A stretch of DNA of 64,000 nt. It comes from Phycisphaeraceae bacterium (GTDB lineage: Bacteria; Planctomycetota; Phycisphaerae; Phycisphaerales; Phycisphaeraceae). The position numbers and the translations under genes were made by a program. The stretch spans positions 41,790-105,789 of the forward strand of contig JBKAGS010000002.1 in assembly GCA_046290505.1 (NCBI GenBank), read 5' to 3'. The notes below the pieces were generated by a model. It was given only the letters and a program-made list of their open reading frames with translations. It ran no database searches and was not told where the DNA came from. Positions 42,895-63,623 of the stretch are shown one piece after another; position 1 is the first letter of the stretch; every line of letters starts with the position of its first letter.

Positions 42895-43929
42895 TCAGCC
42901 TGCACCAATCATCGCCTCTCGCAGCAGTAGTTTTTCCCGCAAAGGCTCAGCGGCTTCATGACTGCGTTTGTCGCCATCGGCCATCTCCAGCCAGACCTGT
43001 ATTGGTGAGGCGACGAGCTTATCGCGGGCATCGAAGAACACCCGCTGGTCATCGGTCTGGATCAGCTTCAGGTTTGGGAACGCAGTTGTCTGCTTGGGCT
43101 CGTCACCGATAGCCGACAAGACTTCTTGGATCGGGCGGCGGGTATACAGCGACACGGCTTTGTCTCCGCCGAAGACCACGTAGCTGGCGGCACTGGCCAT
43201 GCCGGTCTTGACCACGTCCCCAGCGAAGTTGCCGAACAGCCGATCCAGGAGTTCATCTTCACGGATCATACACTTGCCGGTCCATGTGGCTTTTACCTTC
43301 GGCGGCTCGTACCCGTCGGTCAGACCTTCCATCAACGCGCGCGGATCGATGACCTGCACTGATCGCTTATTCGAGCGTGATACAGCCCCTTCTTTATCCA
43401 GACGTTTGAGTACCTTCGAGACAGTGCTCATGGCGAGCTGCCCGCCTCGGGCTTGGATCAACTCGAGCACTGCGCTGACCGAGTCGATCTCGTCACGGAG
43501 CATCAACGCTCGCGGCACCAGCGAACTGTCGCCGCGATAGACGGACTTGATCCCCCGGCGCTCGGGATAGCGGTTCGGTTCACCGGATCGGTTGTAGAAC
43601 GATTGACCAAGGAACACGACCCCGTTGCCGCACAAGTCGATTCCGCTGATCCGGTCACTCATCAAACGGTTGAGCTTGTCTTGGTCGTAGTACGGAGCGA
43701 CCAACAGCGGGCGGGGCCCTGGCGTGTCTCTCTCCTGTCCGATCGCTCGGTCCAGAGTCCGGGGGTTCGCGTCAGGCAGGGGCACCACGCGGAACACACT
43801 CGGCTGATCATCATTGACCCCAAACAGGGTGACCGTTCGGTCAGAGGGATAGCCCTCGGCCTCGATCCTCAGTGGGATCATGTTCAGGCCGTCCTGCTCG
43901 ATGCGGGCTTGTACGTCGTCGGTGTTCAT
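42895..43929 (-). CDS. Moron-encoded protein of unknown function with a central wHTH-like segment
   Basis: ATG at 43929 (AGGAAA upstream). 344 aa. Segment QLAMSTVSKVLKRLDKEGAVS looks like a winged helix. The C-terminal ASPIQVWLEMADGDKRSHEAAEPL is reminiscent of AbiEi-type antitoxin C-termini (weak, from memory). AT-richer than the flanks. Confidence 0.6.
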   Translation of the reverse strand: MNTDDVQARIEQDGLNMIPLRIEAEGYPSDRTVTLFGVNDDQPSVFRVVPLPDANPRTLDRAIGQERDTPGPRPLLVAPYYDQDKLNRLMSDRISGIDLCGNGVVFLGQSFYNRSGEPNRYPERRGIKSVYRGDSSLVPRALMLRDEIDSVSAVLELIQARGGQLAMSTVSKVLKRLDKEGAVSRSNKRSVQVIDPRALMEGLTDGYEPPKVKATWTGKCMIREDELLDRLFGNFAGDVVKTGMASAASYVVFGGDKAVSLYTRRPIQEVLSAIGDEPKQTTAFPNLKLIQTDDQRVFFDARDKLVASPIQVWLEMADGDKRSHEAAEPLREKLLLREAMIGAG

Positions 43930-43946
43930 TTTCCTATCATGGTATA

Positions 43947-43964
43947 TTTTCCCGCACGGGAAAA
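43947..43964. promoter_or_regulatory. Perfect 8-2-8 inverted repeat TTTTCCCG-CA-CGGGAAAA (candidate operator) in the moron promoter region
   Basis: Read directly. Further TTTTCC/GGAAAA half-sites lie at 43929..43934, 43977..43985 and 44011..44016. Confidence 0.55.
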
Positions 43965-44041
43965 CAAACGAAAACAGGAAATTTTCTGCAAACACATATT
44001 CCCTCGGCTCGGAAAACCGCTAATTCCAGAAAAAACTGTCC

Positions 44042-48600: not shown

Positions 48601-49986
48601 TCAAACACCCGCTTCCTCTACCCCGGCGCTGGCCGGGGTTTTCTCAGTCAAGGCGGGGATGCGTTCCGCCTTCTGCCCGGTGAACTTCTCCCAGCGTTCA
48701 ACAATGACATCGCAGTACGGCGGGTCGAGTTCCATCAGGAACGCGCGACGCCCGGTCTGTTCACAGCCGATCAGCGTCGAGCCGCTGCCGCCGAAGAGGT
48801 CGAGCACGTTCTGTCCGGGCTGGGACGAGTATTGGATCGCACGCACCGCGAGTTCGACGGGCTTCTCGGTCAAGTGAACCATCGACTGCGGGTTGACCTT
48901 CTTCACGTGCCAGAGGTCGGTCGCGTTGTTCGGGCCGTAGAACTTGTGGCCCGCGCCTTCCTTCCAGCCGTAGAACGCGATCTCGAACGCGCCCATGAAG
49001 TCCTTTCGCGTCAGCACCGGGTGCTGCTTGTCCCACACGATGCCCTGCGAGAAGTACAGCCCGGCACGTTTGAGAGGCGCGGGGTAGTTGCCGAGGTTGG
49101 CGTAGCCGCCCCAGACGTAGAACGATCCACCGGGCACGAGCACGCGCGAGGCGTTGCCGAACCAGGCGTCGAGCATCTCATCGAACGCCTCGTCGGTCAC
49201 GAAGTCGTTGGCGAGCGGCCGGTCCTTCGCTCGCATCTGCTTGTGCGTCGGCTTGGACTTTTCGGGGTGCCGGGCGAGGTCGAGCTTCTGGTGGTGCCCG
49301 CCTGATCCTTTGGCTTTGGGGAAAGAAGAGTTGCCCGCGGCGATCGCGTTGTTGCTGCGCGGCTCGACCTTCACGTTGTACGGCGGGTCCATGTTGACCA
49401 AGTGGATCGTCTCGCCGTCGAGGAGCCGGTCGAGGTCATCGGGCTTGGTCGAGTCGCCACACATCAGGCGGTGGTTGCCGAGCACCCAGATGTCGCCGCG
49501 CTGCGTGACCGGGTCGGCCGGGGGCTCGGGGATGTCGTCGGGATCGGTATTGCCGGCGGTGACGCCTTCTTCGCCGGAGAGCAGTCGCGCGAGCTCGTCG
49601 CCGTCGAAGCCGAGCAGGTCCAGGTCGAACCCCTCGTCGCGTAGACCGGCCAGTTCGATCGGCAAGAGGTCGAAGTCCCAGTCCGCAATCGTCGCGGTCT
49701 GGTTGTCGGCGATGCGGTAGGCGCGGAGCTTATCGGCGGGCAGGTCCTTGGCGACATGCACCGGTACCTTCTCGAAGCCGAGCTTGGTCGCGGCCTTCCA
49801 CCGGGTGTGGCCGACGACGATAACGCCGTCGCCATCAACGACGATCGGTTGGCGGAACCCGAACTGCTCGATGCTGCGCGCGACGGCATCGACCGCTTCA
49901 TCATTGAGCCGGGGGTTGTGCTCATAGGGCTTGATGCTGGCCAGGGGACGGAGTTCGATCTTCAAGTTGTGTTGCGTTGCGGTCAT
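48601..49986 (-). CDS. ParB-like nuclease domain fused to a beta-class DNA methyltransferase (N6A/N4C)
   Basis: 461 aa. ParB-N motifs (IKPYEHNPRLN...VVGHTRWKAA). Catalytic VNMDPPYNV precedes the AdoMet motif LDLFGGSGST. Confidence 0.85.
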   Translation of the reverse strand: MTATQHNLKIELRPLASIKPYEHNPRLNDEAVDAVARSIEQFGFRQPIVVDGDGVIVVGHTRWKAATKLGFEKVPVHVAKDLPADKLRAYRIADNQTATIADWDFDLLPIELAGLRDEGFDLDLLGFDGDELARLLSGEEGVTAGNTDPDDIPEPPADPVTQRGDIWVLGNHRLMCGDSTKPDDLDRLLDGETIHLVNMDPPYNVKVEPRSNNAIAAGNSSFPKAKGSGGHHQKLDLARHPEKSKPTHKQMRAKDRPLANDFVTDEAFDEMLDAWFGNASRVLVPGGSFYVWGGYANLGNYPAPLKRAGLYFSQGIVWDKQHPVLTRKDFMGAFEIAFYGWKEGAGHKFYGPNNATDLWHVKKVNPQSMVHLTEKPVELAVRAIQYSSQPGQNVLDLFGGSGSTLIGCEQTGRRAFLMELDPPYCDVIVERWEKFTGQKAERIPALTEKTPASAGVEEAGV

Positions 49987-57221: not shown

Positions 57222-57302
57222 CGTGGCTCCGAAAGAAAAGTTCCCGGCGACGAGCACTGCTGCCCGCCGCCGAGAACTACATCAGTCAACGATCACTCAG
57301 AC

Positions 57303-57878
57303 TTACCCCTTCTTGAGCAGGTCTTGAATGCCCGCTTCCTCGAAGTGCTCCCGAATCTGCTTGCGGGCCCGATGGATCGTGGTCTCGCTGACGCCAAGCT
57401 CACGAGCGGCTTCCGCCTGCGTGTGCGACATCAAAAGCACCGCGATCTTGTGCAGTCGCTCGGGCAGCTGCTGCACCGCCTTCTGCACGACCTCTGCGAC
57501 TTCGGACTGATCGGCCGAGTCGTCGGGGCGATAGCCGGTCATGCGTTGGCGCTGGTCCTGGTCGATCTCGTCACCCATCGCCGCCTCGAGGGAAGTGCCG
57601 CCCCGACGCTTGGGATGGCGTGCTTCGCGCAGGAGATGGATGCACCTGCGGTTGACCACACGCGAGATGTACGTCGGCAGGCTCGCCTTGCTCGGGTCGA
57701 ACTTGGGCAGCGCCTTGAGCAGGTCGAGTGCGAGTTCCTGCTCGATGTCGGGCACATCGCTGGGGGTGAAGCCCGGCTTTCGGCTTAGACGGCGGGCGTG
57801 ATACTCGATCCGTTTTTGTGCGTAGGGATCGATCGGACTCTGCGAGTCCACGGCGGGGGCGGTTGCGTTCTGCAACAT
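57303..57878 (-). CDS. Sigma-70 family (ECF-like, two-domain) RNA polymerase sigma factor
   Basis: 191 aa. Region-2-like EQELALDLLKALPKFDPSKASLPTYISRVVNRRCIHLLRE. Region-4 HTH QAEAARELGVSETTIHRARKQIREHF. GGAG 8 nt upstream of the ATG. Confidence 0.8.
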   Translation of the reverse strand: MLQNATAPAVDSQSPIDPYAQKRIEYHARRLSRKPGFTPSDVPDIEQELALDLLKALPKFDPSKASLPTYISRVVNRRCIHLLREARHPKRRGGTSLEAAMGDEIDQDQRQRMTGYRPDDSADQSEVAEVVQKAVQQLPERLHKIAVLLMSHTQAEAARELGVSETTIHRARKQIREHFEEAGIQDLLKKG

Positions 57879-58011
57879 ATCGCGGCTCCAAATTGGAGGG
57901 GAGATATGCGGCCCACAGCGGGCCGCGACGCCCTCCGCCGCAGTTGCAGAAGTCCGGTTTTAAAAAACTGCAAGAAGACGCAAGCCCATGCAGATCAGTG
58001 GCTTGCGCGCA

Positions 58012-58058
58012 TAAAAAAAGCTCTTGCAGTTGCGCGAAATCGCGCGAAGTGCAAGAGC
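58012..58058 (-). terminator. Strong rho-independent terminator ending the recombinase-proximal operon
   Basis: The minus strand reads GCTCTTGCActtcGCGCGatttCGCGCaacTGCAAGAGC followed by TTTTTTT. It lies 24 nt after the stop at 58082. Confidence 0.8.
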
Positions 58059-58081
58059 GATCTGGTTGTCAGTGTTTGGGG

Positions 58082-59074
58082 CTACTTGCGGCCGAAGCGC
58101 ATCACGGCTTCGAGATCGTTTGCTGTATCCCAAAGCAGGCTGAGCATCTGGTCATCATTTTTGCAGCGGGTGAAATCGGATTCACTAACTCCCGCACGCT
58201 TGGCCATTTCTTTCTGAGTGGGACGAGGCAGTAGTTGGGCAGGCTCATCACGATCAACTAACGAGAACGCATGATCACGAGCGCTCCGCAGATGCTCTTC
58301 GATAGCCTTCCGTAGTGATTCTGCCTTCGCAGTTCGCTCGGCCCGTTTCTTCTTCGTCTGGCGCTTTGGCTTGGTAACCGTAAGGCCTCGGGTTGACGCG
58401 AGTGCAGCGAGGTGTTGCGTGCGATACGACTCCACGATTTCATCCCAGGCGGAGAGCATGGTCATCGCCTTGCCATCCCAGCCGATGGCATCCGAGAGTA
58501 GGCATACAAACCCATGCTTCGCCCGAATCATCGTGGCGGTTGTATTGTCGATCGCACCTTCATGTGTAGTCAGAGCAATGAAGCCCGGTTCAGGACGCAT
58601 GCATAGGTCCTGTAGCTCGCGCGTGAACAACTTCACCGATGCGGGCAGGATCATGTAGGCCGGGACCGACATGTTCTGGTCGATCGGAACATCACCGATC
58701 GAGTATGAGCCGTGCAACCCGTTGATCGGGGTTGGGTTGGCTCGCATGCCGAGCGCAGCTGCGATCGACCGGCGTACTGCCAGCAGGTCAAGACGATAGC
58801 AACGGACGTCGGCCTCCTCGATCCCGGTTGCGGCTACAGTGCCCGTCGATTCGCAGACAAGCTGATAACCGGACCTCGCCGGGACCACATCTAATAGTCG
58901 ATCGTGGTCGTTGGCTCGACAACTCGCCGCAATACCCATTCCTTGAAAATGGGTCGACTTCAACGCACCCCATGTGGCATCGCCGAGTACCGACTGCCAT
59001 TCCATACTGCTTGCGTCAAGGCCTTGCCTGAGGTTTAAGAACTTCCACAGCGGTTCCAAGGAAGATGTTTCCAT
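58082..59074 (-). CDS. Unknown protein (330 aa) with a C-terminal basic linker and an HTH-like tail; second gene of a coupled pair
   Basis: The ATG at 59074 overlaps the upstream TAA (TAATG). C-terminus has KPKRQTKKKRAERTAKAE and PTQKEMAKRAGVSESDFTR. No family recognised. Confidence 0.6.
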   Translation of the reverse strand: METSSLEPLWKFLNLRQGLDASSMEWQSVLGDATWGALKSTHFQGMGIAASCRANDHDRLLDVVPARSGYQLVCESTGTVAATGIEEADVRCYRLDLLAVRRSIAAALGMRANPTPINGLHGSYSIGDVPIDQNMSVPAYMILPASVKLFTRELQDLCMRPEPGFIALTTHEGAIDNTTATMIRAKHGFVCLLSDAIGWDGKAMTMLSAWDEIVESYRTQHLAALASTRGLTVTKPKRQTKKKRAERTAKAESLRKAIEEHLRSARDHAFSLVDRDEPAQLLPRPTQKEMAKRAGVSESDFTRCKNDDQMLSLLWDTANDLEAVMRFGRK

Positions 59075-60252
59075 TAGGCTGCACCCCCGCGACGATTAAC
59101 AAGGAATCCGCGTTCGGCCAGGAAACGGTGAGCCAGCTCGGCGTCGTTCTCGTGGTCATAGACGGAGATGTTCGGCCATTGGAGCTTAATGTTGCGCTCG
59201 CCGCCCAGCTCTGTGCTGGGAATGATCTTCAGCGCCATATAGACAAGCTCGACGCCTTCGGGGATGTCGTCCTGCGTGTGCTCCAATCCAGTGAAAACAT
59301 CCACCGCCTTGTGAGTCTGGCAGTACTTGTTGTTGCCGGGGAACCGATAGCGCAACTCGACAAGCCGTGCAGAGTCGATCCCGTCAACATCGGTGCAGTC
59401 CAGCGCCGCGCGGCCACGTTCACGAAGCGGCTCAAGGGAATACTTTGGCGTATCGCCGGACTCGAAGAAGGTGTCGCTGCCAAAGAGATTCTTGCCGAAG
59501 TAGCGGCAGTAAGCGGCACGCTCTCTCTTGCCGTTGCTCGAGTTGTAGATTTCCAGCGTGCCCTGCTTGTGGTGATAGATCAGCAGGTCGTATGCCTCGG
59601 GCCGATAGAAGACCATCGTCGGCTTGCCGTCCTCGAGCGCGTTTTCACGCTTGAAGGTCTCGCCGTGCCGGACGATGAACCAAACCGCGTCGTCTTTTTC
59701 GACAAGGGTGATGCGCGTACCCGAGCCCTTCATCTGCGACTCGTACCAGTAATCCATATCCCGCTCTAGGCGATTGATCTTCTCTTGCGATGGCATGGCC
59801 CACTTCGGAATGGCAGCAACGGTGGCGTCGTATGACAAGAACCGTTTTTTCTTACGCAGCAGACCGTGGGCGTGGCAGGCCGCATGGAGGTCTTCGAGAT
59901 CGTTGGGGGCATCGAGCCGAACGATCAGTGCCATTTCCTCTTTCGTCGCTTCTTGGTCGAACTTGATCTCATGCTTTTCGGCAATCGAAATGAGGTCTTC
60001 CGCATCCGCCATATCAGCGACTTCATCCCAATAGAAAAGGTCTGCCATCAGGGGGGCGGGCATCGCTTCGCTGGGTGCCATCAACAGCACCGACAAGCGG
60101 TCGTAGTCCAGATCACTGGGCGCGGCGGGGATCACGCCTTTGGGCTCAAAGAATTCTTTGTGTTTGTTCAGGAGCCGGATGAGGACGGATGGCGAGATGA
60201 TTCCGAGAAGCTGAGCAGAAGCGATGTGTTTCGGCGTGAAGTTGCTGGCCAT
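59074..60252 (-). CDS. Unknown protein (392 aa); first gene of a coupled pair
   Basis: ATG at 60252 with GGAGG 6 nt upstream. The longer track ORF (to 60426) lacks any signal. No Walker or nuclease motif recognised. Confidence 0.6.
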   Translation of the reverse strand: MASNFTPKHIASAQLLGIISPSVLIRLLNKHKEFFEPKGVIPAAPSDLDYDRLSVLLMAPSEAMPAPLMADLFYWDEVADMADAEDLISIAEKHEIKFDQEATKEEMALIVRLDAPNDLEDLHAACHAHGLLRKKKRFLSYDATVAAIPKWAMPSQEKINRLERDMDYWYESQMKGSGTRITLVEKDDAVWFIVRHGETFKRENALEDGKPTMVFYRPEAYDLLIYHHKQGTLEIYNSSNGKRERAAYCRYFGKNLFGSDTFFESGDTPKYSLEPLRERGRAALDCTDVDGIDSARLVELRYRFPGNNKYCQTHKAVDVFTGLEHTQDDIPEGVELVYMALKIIPSTELGGERNIKLQWPNISVYDHENDAELAHRFLAERGFLVNRRGGAA

Positions 60253-60438
60253 GAAGCCTCCGTGCTGCGCCCCCGGTGGAGGCTGGAACGTCAATAGGAC
60301 AACCCTGTCCTGCTCGCTTCTATGCAAGTGGCGCGCCAACAAAGACTTAGCGCGCAAGCGCGTTAGGGCGCAAGACTTGTGAGTATTGCGAATCCCTGCG
60401 GCAGATGTGTTGGGATGCCCAAACAAGCGCCGAACGGA

Positions 60439-60867
60439 TTAGGGGCTGCCGATCTGGCGGTTAGATGGCAGGCGAGCCCACCATGCCCGCTGCTCATCCC
60501 AGTCCACGATCTTCATGATCGGCTTGAGCTGCCGCTCTTGGACGCGGTCTTTGCCCGACATGGTTGGCGGCAGATTCAGGATCGCTTCCTGAATATCCGG
60601 AGCCAGATGCAGCAGGTTCATGATCTGTGTGACTCGGGCCCGGCTGACGTGGCTGAGCCGGGCGATCTCGGCCTGGTTCTCGACAACGCCGTCGTCGATG
60701 AGTTGCTGGAACCGGACCGCGAGTGCCATCAGGCGGGAGATGCGCGGAACCCTCCCCTGGCCGGTTGGCGACGGCTTGCTCTGGACCGGGAGTTTGCTGC
60801 GTCGCGCACGGTGCTCTCGGCCGAACCCGACCTTCTTGGTGACTACGAACGTGTTTGAATTCGTCAT
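60439..60867 (-). CDS. HTH protein commonly linked to large serine recombinases
   Basis: 142 aa. ISRLMALAVRFQQLIDDGVVENQAEIARLSHVSRARVTQIMNLLHLAPDIQEAIL. ATGA overlap with the recombinase stop. Confidence 0.6.
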   Translation of the reverse strand: MTNSNTFVVTKKVGFGREHRARRSKLPVQSKPSPTGQGRVPRISRLMALAVRFQQLIDDGVVENQAEIARLSHVSRARVTQIMNLLHLAPDIQEAILNLPPTMSGKDRVQERQLKPIMKIVDWDEQRAWWARLPSNRQIGSP

Positions 60868-63404: not shown

Positions 63405-63554
63405 GTTCTCCGCCTCGTTAACACCTCGGTAAACGCGAGAACAGAGTGTGCGCCGTAAGTCGTTGTCGTAACGAGCGAAACGTGGCGGGGTTGCGGACGG
63501 CTTGATTCGCGCAAGAAAAAACCGTCAGGCTTTCGCTTTGACGGTGGAAGCTCC
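63405..63554. repeat. Right copy of the diverged direct repeat (region immediately 3' of tRNA-Asn)
   Basis: See 18975..19123. Same anchors and spacing, with the exact 14-mer at 63454..63467. Confidence 0.7.
63516..63544 (-). terminator. Rho-independent terminator of tRNA-Asn
   Basis: The minus strand reads ccgtca-aagcgaaagcc-tgacgg followed by TTTTTT, starting 7 nt after the tRNA 3' end. Confidence 0.7.
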
Positions 63555-63623
63555 CCCGGCTGGACTCGAACCAGCAACCTGCGGATTAACAGTCCGACGC
63601 TCTACCGATTGAGCTACAGGGGA
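63551..63623 (-). tRNA. tRNA-Asn: tRNA-Asn (anticodon GUU), 73 nt, CCA not encoded
   Basis: Hand-folded cloverleaf. Acceptor UCCCCUG/CGGGGGA, D arm GCUC/GAGC, anticodon loop CUGUUAA, variable loop AGGUU, T arm GCUGG-UUCGAGU-CCAGC, discriminator G. Confidence 0.9.

Follow-up and report, generated by a model that had tools for sequence, protein, structure and literature searches.

A two-gene pair beside a phage sigma factor gene as a candidate immunity region of Planctomycetota prophages

What is the role of two adjacent genes that match no known family and stand between the integration genes and the early genes of a prophage in which no CI-like repressor is recognizable? The question is raised by a 64,000-nucleotide (nt) stretch of a Phycisphaeraceae bacterium genome (Planctomycetota; assembly GCA_046290505.1, contig JBKAGS010000002.1, positions 41,790 to 105,789), hereafter the window, in which a gene pair, here called A and B, precedes the gene of a phage-encoded sigma factor. 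An earlier interpretation made from the letters of the window alone (the sequence-only reading) proposed that the pair was either defense, exclusion or immunity cargo next to an integrase or an unconventional lysogeny-control module. The comparisons described below do not support the first proposal and make the second the best fit, on the strength of the position of the pair at a junction of phage modules, its fast divergence, and the finding that the type of DNA-binding domain in B predicts the motif found before the sigma gene. We put at roughly 55% the probability that A and B act as a two-protein regulator of the sigma factor that the phage itself encodes and constitute the functional "immunity region" of a large family of Planctomycetota (pro)phages, and the sequence comparisons suggest that the pair acts in place of a classical repressor.

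Both genes are read on the minus strand. A runs from an ATG at 60252 to a TAA at 59074 and encodes 392 amino acids (aa), and B runs from an ATG at 59074 to 58082 and encodes 330 aa, the two open reading frames (ORFs) being coupled by a TAATG overlap at 59074 behind a 186-bp leader, just as the sequence-only reading had described them. The start of A was placed at 60252 because every homolog begins at the same MAS.. residue, and a 450-aa form of A beginning at an upstream TTG codon was ruled out on the same grounds. The left end of the prophage lies in this part of the window and adjoins a tRNA-Asn gene (63550..63623), and all identified phage genes, from DUF2924 to the tail genes, occupy the minus strand over about 44 kilobases (kb; 19230–62980). 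Their order begins with DUF2924, a large serine recombinase, a 142-aa ParB-helix-turn-helix (HTH)-like protein, A, B and an extracytoplasmic function (ECF)-like sigma factor, continues with a DUF3799 exonuclease, AAA_24, DUF669, RusA, a helicase and a Prim-Pol primase, and then reaches a methylase, the terminase, a lambda-type portal and the capsid. No CI/Cro-like protein, XRE/S24-type repressor or divergent regulatory gene was found among the window ORFs scanned, which agrees with the earlier remark that the prophage has no evident CI/Cro-like pair. The G+C (GC) content of A-B (55–59%) is lower than that of both flanks (62–67%), a contrast that the sequence-only reading had noted for the replication genes; a dip at A-B recurs in 64 of 79 related loci, with a mean of −2.5 points, and is therefore a property of the family and no sign of recent import into this prophage.

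Are the two genes a functional unit, and is their place beside a serine recombinase meaningful? To compare gene neighborhoods, about 90 loci carrying a homolog of A were collected, and profile searches for ten neighboring genes were run over the six-frame ORFs of all loci. The gene that starts at or just before the stop codon of A encodes the N-terminal domain of B (~205 aa) in 79 of 87 loci, and in several of the remaining eight the C-terminal part of its product still groups with B, so the co-occurrence that the sequence-only reading had proposed to look for is real. In three database proteins (P0184, P0229 and P0239, the last of which looks frameshifted) A and the B N-terminal domain form a single chain. 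Together, these observations indicate that A and B probably form a complex. The other part of the proposed survey, whether the pair always stands beside serine recombinases, had a negative outcome. In the commonest arrangement, genes follow the window order and are all co-directional. In about 15 loci AAA_24, sigma, the 142-aa HTH gene, the recombinase and DUF2924 lie in that order on the minus strand and are followed by a divergent A and B. In other loci a minus-strand AAA_24 is followed by A, B and sigma and then by DUF2924, the recombinase and the 142-aa HTH gene; a tyrosine integrase or a reversed serine recombinase is followed by A, B and sigma; or DUF3799 and sigma on the minus strand are followed by A and B. 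A tyrosine integrase stands beside A-B in L006, L019 and L044, and an ImmA-like M78 peptidase adjoins A in some loci. Since the neighbor of A-B can also be a tyrosine integrase, and the pair can stand apart from the recombinase, its link to serine recombinases is incidental, and what remains constant in all arrangements is the junction of the integration genes with the sigma gene or early operon. As a separate observation, A-B is the outermost gene pair in about 15 IMG/VR viral contigs (L040, L052, L053, L055, L059 and others), where the predicted provirus end falls 0–1.7 kb from A and often 3 bp past the B stop codon; in these phages the pair lies between the recombinase and the attachment site and points outward.

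The constancy of the pair is accompanied by a modularity of B. Its N-terminal domain (approximately residues 1–228; 58391..59074, minus strand) is the conserved part that accompanies A, and its C-terminal domain (approximately residues 245–330; 58085..58342, minus strand), comprising a long helix and a helix-turn-helix (..LLPRPTQKEMAKRAGVSESDFTRC..), is a predicted, interchangeable DNA-binding domain. Four homologs of B are close and the others are 20–30% identical, the distant ones sharing mainly a C-terminal block (..HLRSARDHAF..LLPRPxQK-HTH). An alignment of B homologs shows this block to be the most conserved stretch of this B type, and the HTH-like tail noticed in the sequence-only reading thus stands. 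B has no match in Pfam, NCBIfam or PADLOC (E ≤ 1 for PADLOC), and its sole match below E 0.01 in PHROGs is a weak one to phrog_725, a "CII-like regulator" (residues 283–309, E 6.5e-4), followed by phrog_191 at E 0.068; the isolated tail gives a sub-threshold HTH_31 match (E 0.086). Neither B nor A matches an HTH_3/XRE or S24 (LexA-like) peptidase domain in Pfam. A structural model of B (predicted local distance difference test (pLDDT) 87, predicted template modeling score (pTM) 0.62) begins with a helix/strand part that reads, from its secondary structure, as a winged-helix-like unit, and continues with a β unit that carries CxxC...CxxC in many relatives and an α/β unit, after which a disordered basic linker leads to a long helix and a helical tail; a Foldseek search of this model against the PDB returned no significant fold match. 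Across the family the C-terminal parts of B cluster into three main types and several minor ones, with the window protein belonging to type 3 (LLPRP-HTH). An HTH or winged HTH is recognizable in two of the types, one of them minor, and minor type 5 is Rrf2-like (E 4e-6). A single kind of N-terminal domain is found joined to C-terminal parts of at least three main types. From these sequence features, B probably binds DNA.

Is the type of the C-terminal domain of B reflected in the sequences nearby? A comparison of motifs in the 300 nt after B, made over non-redundant loci, revealed such a correspondence: G[TC]CAC-N5-8-GTG[AG]C occurs only with type 2 B (10 of 12 loci), at least two TTGCAG/CTGCAA sites occur only with type 3 B (11 of 14 loci), and GAAATTTC occurs only with type 1 B (about 10 of 35 loci after B, with more upstream of sigma in divergent loci). 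In type-1 loci in which A-B is divergent and distant, paired GAAATTTC palindromes are found upstream of sigma and not beside B, and the motif that matches the B type sits upstream of sigma in every gene arrangement. The window itself is a mosaic, as its A is 57–69% identical to the A of type-2 loci, yet it carries a type-3 domain and type-3 boxes. This mosaic, together with the way GAAATTTC stays with sigma, separates the match between domain and motif from shared ancestry.

In the window, the type-3 boxes lie between B and the sigma gene. An intrinsic terminator follows B (58012..58058, minus strand; a 9+5 bp stem of −25.8 kcal/mol, z −3.6, then U7), the arms of its stem are an inverted TTGCA/TGCAA box pair, and a hairpin with a T-run follows B in most of the related loci examined. 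Next to it is an operator-like region (57943..58011, minus strand) containing TGCGCGCAA, CTTGCG-N-CTTGCAG, which provides a single copy of TTGC-N6-TTGC (57983..57970), and TCTGCAAC. The sigma gene downstream (57303..57878, minus strand; Pfam Sigma70_r2, Sigma70_ECF and r4_2), whose counterpart is present in 80 related loci, is the probable target of A-B. The densest TTGCAG/CTGCAA cluster of the 64 kb, with 4 sites per 200 nt against a mean of 0.08, begins at the terminator arm and reaches a short way into the sigma gene. In eight type-3 loci whose B and sigma proteins are only 22–31% identical, the terminator arms (TTGCA...TGCAA), CTTGCAG and TCTGCAA are invariant and TGCGCGCAA is kept in most, and the conserved boxes of relatives are mostly inverted TTGCAG/CTGCAA pairs. 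The placement of these boxes suggests that A-B controls the sigma gene. The sequence-only reading had called the terminator the strongest in the window; its 9+5 bp stem and T7 tract are real, and its rank is not established, because a hairpin at 57278..57239 is more stable, though its U tract is poorer. That 18-bp hairpin (57239–57278, minus strand; −35.6 kcal/mol, z −6.5) stands right after the sigma gene, and with terminator-like structures on both sides, sigma looks like a separate transcription unit.

Two further features of the B–sigma interval were noted in relatives. In type-2 loci (L001, L004, L006, L010–L015) a stretch of about 150 nt between B and sigma, which reads ..GCCCCGCCGGTGAAGAGCGAAAGCCGGCGAG..GGCCCGCTGAAGCGCTCCCGCCGGTGTTCTTCAGCGGGCCTTTTT.., is almost identical where the proteins are only about 60% identical (e.g., L012:3657–3830). 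This stretch is a candidate small RNA or complex operator/terminator, and an Rfam search of the L012 B–sigma intergenic region gave sub-threshold noise only. In L020, L027, L033, L038 and L046 an extra ORF of about 130 aa, absent from the window and marked by LLELMQxINFGRIExL..DGEPVFDPPP..VKFGG, lies between B and sigma; as the operator-like boxes are upstream of it, it would be co-regulated with sigma.

Rates of divergence set A, B and sigma apart from the genes around them. Identity to the window protein is 50–57% for the recombinase in every locus with a full-length match, and 57–70% for DUF669 and 59–66% for the helicase in every locus. For A it is 57–69% in one group of loci and 31–37% in all the others, the identity of the B N-terminal domain drops in step from 42% to 22%, and that of sigma is 25–34% in every locus with a full-length match. 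A, B and sigma thus change much more quickly than the core genes on either side, a behavior typical of immunity regions.

What might A contribute? A belongs to a large uncharacterized family. It has 61 close homologs of 52–88% identity and a distant one at 32%, all of them "hypothetical", and a profile search of 1.84 billion representative proteins places 1,617 clusters at 50% identity in the family at E ≤ 1e-3, of which 482 are retained at E ≤ 1e-30. Named members of the family belong to Planctomycetota, the named close homologs coming mostly from Phycisphaerae metagenome-assembled genomes (MAGs); the genomes with close relatives of A are all Phycisphaerae/Planctomycetota MAGs, except for one 1.5-kb contig, and one distant member is also labeled Planctomycetota. 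A further homolog search with a broad alignment of A found almost nothing beyond the proteins already in hand, no homolog turned up among cultured phages and plasmids when A and a distant relative served as tblastn queries, and a literature search returned nothing relevant to A-B. Nor does A match Pfam, NCBIfam, PADLOC or PHROGs, and 89 diverse relatives are equally without a match in Pfam and PHROGs, which upholds the earlier statement that neither protein could be assigned to a family. Two database proteins join parts of A to other sequences, P0154 combining the N-terminal half of a serine recombinase with A, and P0056 combining A residues 1–240 with an unrelated coiled-coil/tape-measure-like sequence; either may be an assembly or frameshift artifact.

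The structure predicted for A was compared with known folds. The AlphaFold2 model (pLDDT 87, pTM 0.81) was matched by Foldseek to CENP-N (E 6.7e-5) and to Escherichia coli RdgC (2owl; E 8.7e-5, probability 1.0, template modeling (TM) score 0.34/0.42, root-mean-square deviation (rmsd) 8.8 Å), the latter over an alignment of about 320 columns that covers nearly the entire RdgC chain, and among its best viral matches are proteins labeled as RdgC or as recombination-associated (E 6e-6 to 3e-3). A weak resemblance to the N-terminal domains of the RnlA toxin was also seen (Foldseek probability 0.25–0.35). Neither A nor 88 of its relatives match the RdgC family (PF04381) in Pfam, and a PDB-sequence profile search with A returned a chance match only and did not find RdgC even at E ≤ 10. 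Because the TM scores are low and sequence support is absent, we describe A as having a predicted RdgC/CENP-N-like fold and not as a member of the RdgC family. A catalytic motif of the HEPN or PD-(D/E)xK type was also considered and rejected, as none is present among the conserved residues of A.

The leader of A-B offers a view of how the pair may be expressed. At 60323..60338 on the minus strand, 86 nt upstream of the ATG of A, lies TGGCGCGCCACTTGCA, which matches the −24/−12 consensus TGGCAC-N5-TTGCW with the GG-N10-GC spacing of a sigma-54-type promoter. A "GC palindrome" (GGCGCGCC) pointed out by the sequence-only reading does exist, and it is in fact the spacer of this promoter (60338..60323); that reading had recognized neither the promoter nor the tie to the sigma gene. 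The sigma-54 pattern has three exact matches in the window against 0.49 expected. In 13 related loci, some of which have a tyrosine integrase, a sigma-54-type element with invariant GG and TTGC is found 96–116 nt upstream of A, and high-scoring sites (score ≥ 21) occur in 13 of 88 loci compared with 0.1% of background windows. Additional sigma-54 promoters within the TTGCAG boxes were ruled out by direct reading of the sequence, as the GG-N10-GC spacing does not fit. The A-B promoter therefore appears to be one that would use sigma-54, and since the pair would have its own sigma-54-type promoter in this clade, an enhancer-binding activator of the host should be needed to express it; no such activator was found among the window proteins scanned.

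Other elements of the leader surround this promoter. Directly upstream of it (60342..60378) are the direct repeats that, in the minus-strand reading, are two copies each of AAGTCTT and CTTGCGC; they stand where they were first reported (AAGACTT at 60342 and 60372, GCGCAAG at 60352 and 60368), are partly kept in L093, L004 and L012, and could be a candidate binding site for a regulator. Just downstream of the predicted transcription start is an inverted repeat or hairpin, GGACAGGGTTGTCC (60297..60310, minus strand). A hairpin, mostly with a GGA-containing loop and with arms of varying sequence, is present in all 14 loci that have the promoter (besides the window, L004, L006, L010–L012, L014, L015, L017, L019, L057, L066, L078 and L093), where it starts 4–15 nt, most often 12–15 nt, past the sigma-54-type element. 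This feature may act as a structured RNA leader or as a palindromic operator, and an Rfam search over 57900..60600, which includes it, gave no match. A Shine-Dalgarno sequence, GGAGG (60261..60257), precedes A as first noted, with a spacing to the ATG of 4 nt and not 6, and a possible anti-Shine-Dalgarno sequence, AGCCTCC (60284..60278), lies close by in the same minus-strand segment (60257..60284). As the fold of the whole leader is no more stable than that of shuffled controls (z −0.4), sequestration of the Shine-Dalgarno sequence is at most a possibility, and we do not favor it. Farther upstream, the non-coding box GTTCGGCGCTTGTTTGGGCA (60416–60435, minus strand) directly follows the stop codon of the 142-aa HTH gene; it is nearly identical in L093 and L015 and partly kept in L012 and L004, and could be a protein-binding site of the recombinase module.

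How would such a regulator work? In the mechanism that we propose, B would be the DNA-reading subunit, its conserved N-terminal domain docking to A and its interchangeable C-terminal HTH recognizing repeated, mostly inverted boxes, here TTGCAG/CTGCAA, both within the terminator that follows B and in the stretch directly before the sigma gene. A would be the obligate partner that gives B a regulatory input or an effect on DNA. Through the boxes, A-B would set whether the ECF-like sigma factor is made, and sigma in turn would govern the genes farther down, from recombination and replication to the later ones, with the terminator stopping A-B transcription from running into the sigma gene. The divergent arrangements and the looping-type paired sites would suit a repressor, and the CII-like match and the one TTGC-N6-TTGC element would suit an activator.

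Several observations weigh against this interpretation. The structural match of A to RdgC and CENP-N is modest (TM 0.33–0.45, rmsd 8–15 Å) and finds no echo in sequence, the HTH assignment of B in the window depends on weak matches (E 6.5e-4 and E ~0.09), and the sigma-54-type motif is confined to one clade. GAAATTTC was found in only about half of the type-1 loci. Finally, a DNA-binding domain that matches nearby repeats is expected of a replication initiator and its origin too.

This last point leads to the main rival, which we consider unlikely: that B reads the B–sigma intergenic repeats as an origin and that a ring-shaped A helps to open the DNA or to load the helicase-primase. Correspondence between domain and repeat type is typical of initiator–iteron pairs, in most loci the recombination and replication genes come shortly after A-B, a T-run and several hairpins are present in the region, and a DNA-encircling, RdgC-like fold, as modeled for A, might serve such a role. 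The repeats, however, are few and mostly palindromic or inverted, with no direct-iteron array next to an AT-rich segment: between 57880 and 60460 no repeat family exceeds two copies, the intergenic boxes number 2–4, and an origin inside the A-B genes was ruled out because this interval contains no iterons. The repeats also remain upstream of sigma when A-B is relocated, and A, B and sigma co-diverge in the manner of an immunity region as the replication genes stay conserved. Moreover, the phage has its own Prim-Pol/DUF3987 primase-helicase, and P4 α-like primase-helicases usually recognize their own origin. The fold of A would also suit an accessory to recombination or repair, in which A, like RdgC, modulates RecA or a phage Sak4-like recombinase and B targets or regulates A, so that the pair would belong with the adjoining module of exonuclease, AAA_24, single-stranded DNA-binding protein and RusA. 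The likeness to RdgC and to phage recombination-associated proteins, and the presence of DUF3799, AAA_24, DUF669 and RusA beside A-B in the commonest arrangement, speak for this idea. Yet it leaves the swappable domain of B and the matching boxes before sigma unexplained, A has no sequence match to the RdgC family, about 15 loci have A-B divergent and apart from the recombination module, and the divergence of A and B far outpaces that of the recombination genes. We therefore hold it to be quite improbable.

The remaining alternatives appear very improbable. Cargo for defense or exclusion, or a toxin–antitoxin system, would be in keeping with the nearby integrase, a terminator of its own, the lower GC content, the lack of a known family and the faint resemblance of A to RnlA. 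A and B nevertheless have no match in PADLOC-DB v2 at E ≤ 1, and they are a core syntenic pair, occupying one position in virtually all related loci and not behaving as a variable insert. Low GC content is common to the whole family, the pair can accompany tyrosine integrases or stand apart from integrases, and the B domain type matches boxes before the phage's own sigma gene. Similarly slight is the chance that A-B assists site-specific recombination, as a recombination directionality factor or in the control of excision, or that it is an anti-sigma factor for the phage sigma. Such roles would account for a position after DUF2924, the serine recombinase and the HTH protein and before sigma in most loci, and P0154 joins a recombinase N-terminus to A. 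That fusion may be an artifact, however, and A-B also accompanies tyrosine integrases (L006, L019, L044) or has its recombinase elsewhere. Sigma does not co-vary with A, being 25–31% identical where A is 57–69% identical, which speaks against a tight sigma/anti-sigma pair.

Returning to A-B as a regulator of sigma, we can also imagine a more ambitious form of it, which we offer tentatively and regard as doubtful in its entirety. Here the pair would be a new kind of lysis–lysogeny switch without a CI-like repressor, in which a DNA-encircling, RdgC-like A senses the state of the DNA (damage or stalled forks) and, via B as an adaptor with a plug-in DNA-binding domain, gates the phage sigma of the lytic program, the whole being wired to host signaling by the sigma-54 promoter and an enhancer-binding activator. 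To our knowledge, temperate phages of Planctomycetota are almost unstudied. If the regulatory interpretation is true, the lytic program of a very large set of environmental prophages is controlled in a manner unlike the classical repressor–operator pair, by means of two previously undescribed protein families that act on a phage-encoded sigma factor. The exchange of B domains and boxes as cassettes would provide a ready set of predicted protein–DNA recognition pairs, the sigma-54 promoter would suggest a direct route by which host signaling sets prophage behavior, and the A family, with more than 1,600 clusters without annotation, would gain its first functional handle.

Two features elsewhere in the window deserve mention. 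A 366-aa ORF at 42895..43995 has a weak Crp-like HTH match (E 2.8e-4), and just past the replication genes, at 48601–49986 on the minus strand, ParB_N is fused to an N6/N4 DNA methylase (Pfam E 4e-25 and 1.6e-8), an architecture that recurs in the relative L007.

How, finally, does A-B compare with known systems? The functional niche is a known one, and the two families that A and B represent are undescribed. Like the immunity regions of temperate phages (lambda cI/cro/cII, P2 C/Cox and 186 CI/Apl/CII), the pair lies between integration genes and the early operon, is divergent from the early operon in some relatives, diverges much faster than its flanks, and appears to exchange the DNA-binding specificity of B and operator-like boxes as a cassette. 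Unlike those regions, it consists of much larger proteins (392 + 330 aa) with no sequence relationship to theirs, includes neither an S24 peptidase nor a Cro-like partner, runs in the same direction as the early genes in this prophage and has an upstream promoter of the sigma-54 type, and its proposed target is a phage sigma factor instead of an early promoter pair. There may be some likeness to lambda CII, since the HTH of B weakly resembles CII-like regulators and TTGC-N6-TTGC, of which the window has one copy, is the architecture of lambda CII sites, direct repeats at the −35 region, whereas B, at 330 aa, has a large extra N-terminal domain.

Other parallels concern the partners themselves. 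The best structural matches to the A model are the E. coli RdgC ring and CENP-N/CENP-L, and phage RdgC-like proteins match too, but some 130 residues at the N-terminus of A form an additional helical region, and A is always paired with B, whereas RdgC acts alone as a homodimer. In concept only, a DNA-encircling, non-specific protein that controls promoters with a site-specific HTH partner would be analogous to KorB-KorA of plasmid RK2, where KorB is a CTP-dependent clamp of the ParB family and KorA a small, site-specific HTH co-repressor; A-B has no homology to either, and clamping or sliding by A is hypothetical. The pair also resembles one-component regulators in joining a large input part (A and the B N-terminal domain, sometimes fused) to a short DNA-binding domain that serves as the output and is exchanged among lineages, and differs from them in that the input part is split over two genes and lies outside known sensor families.

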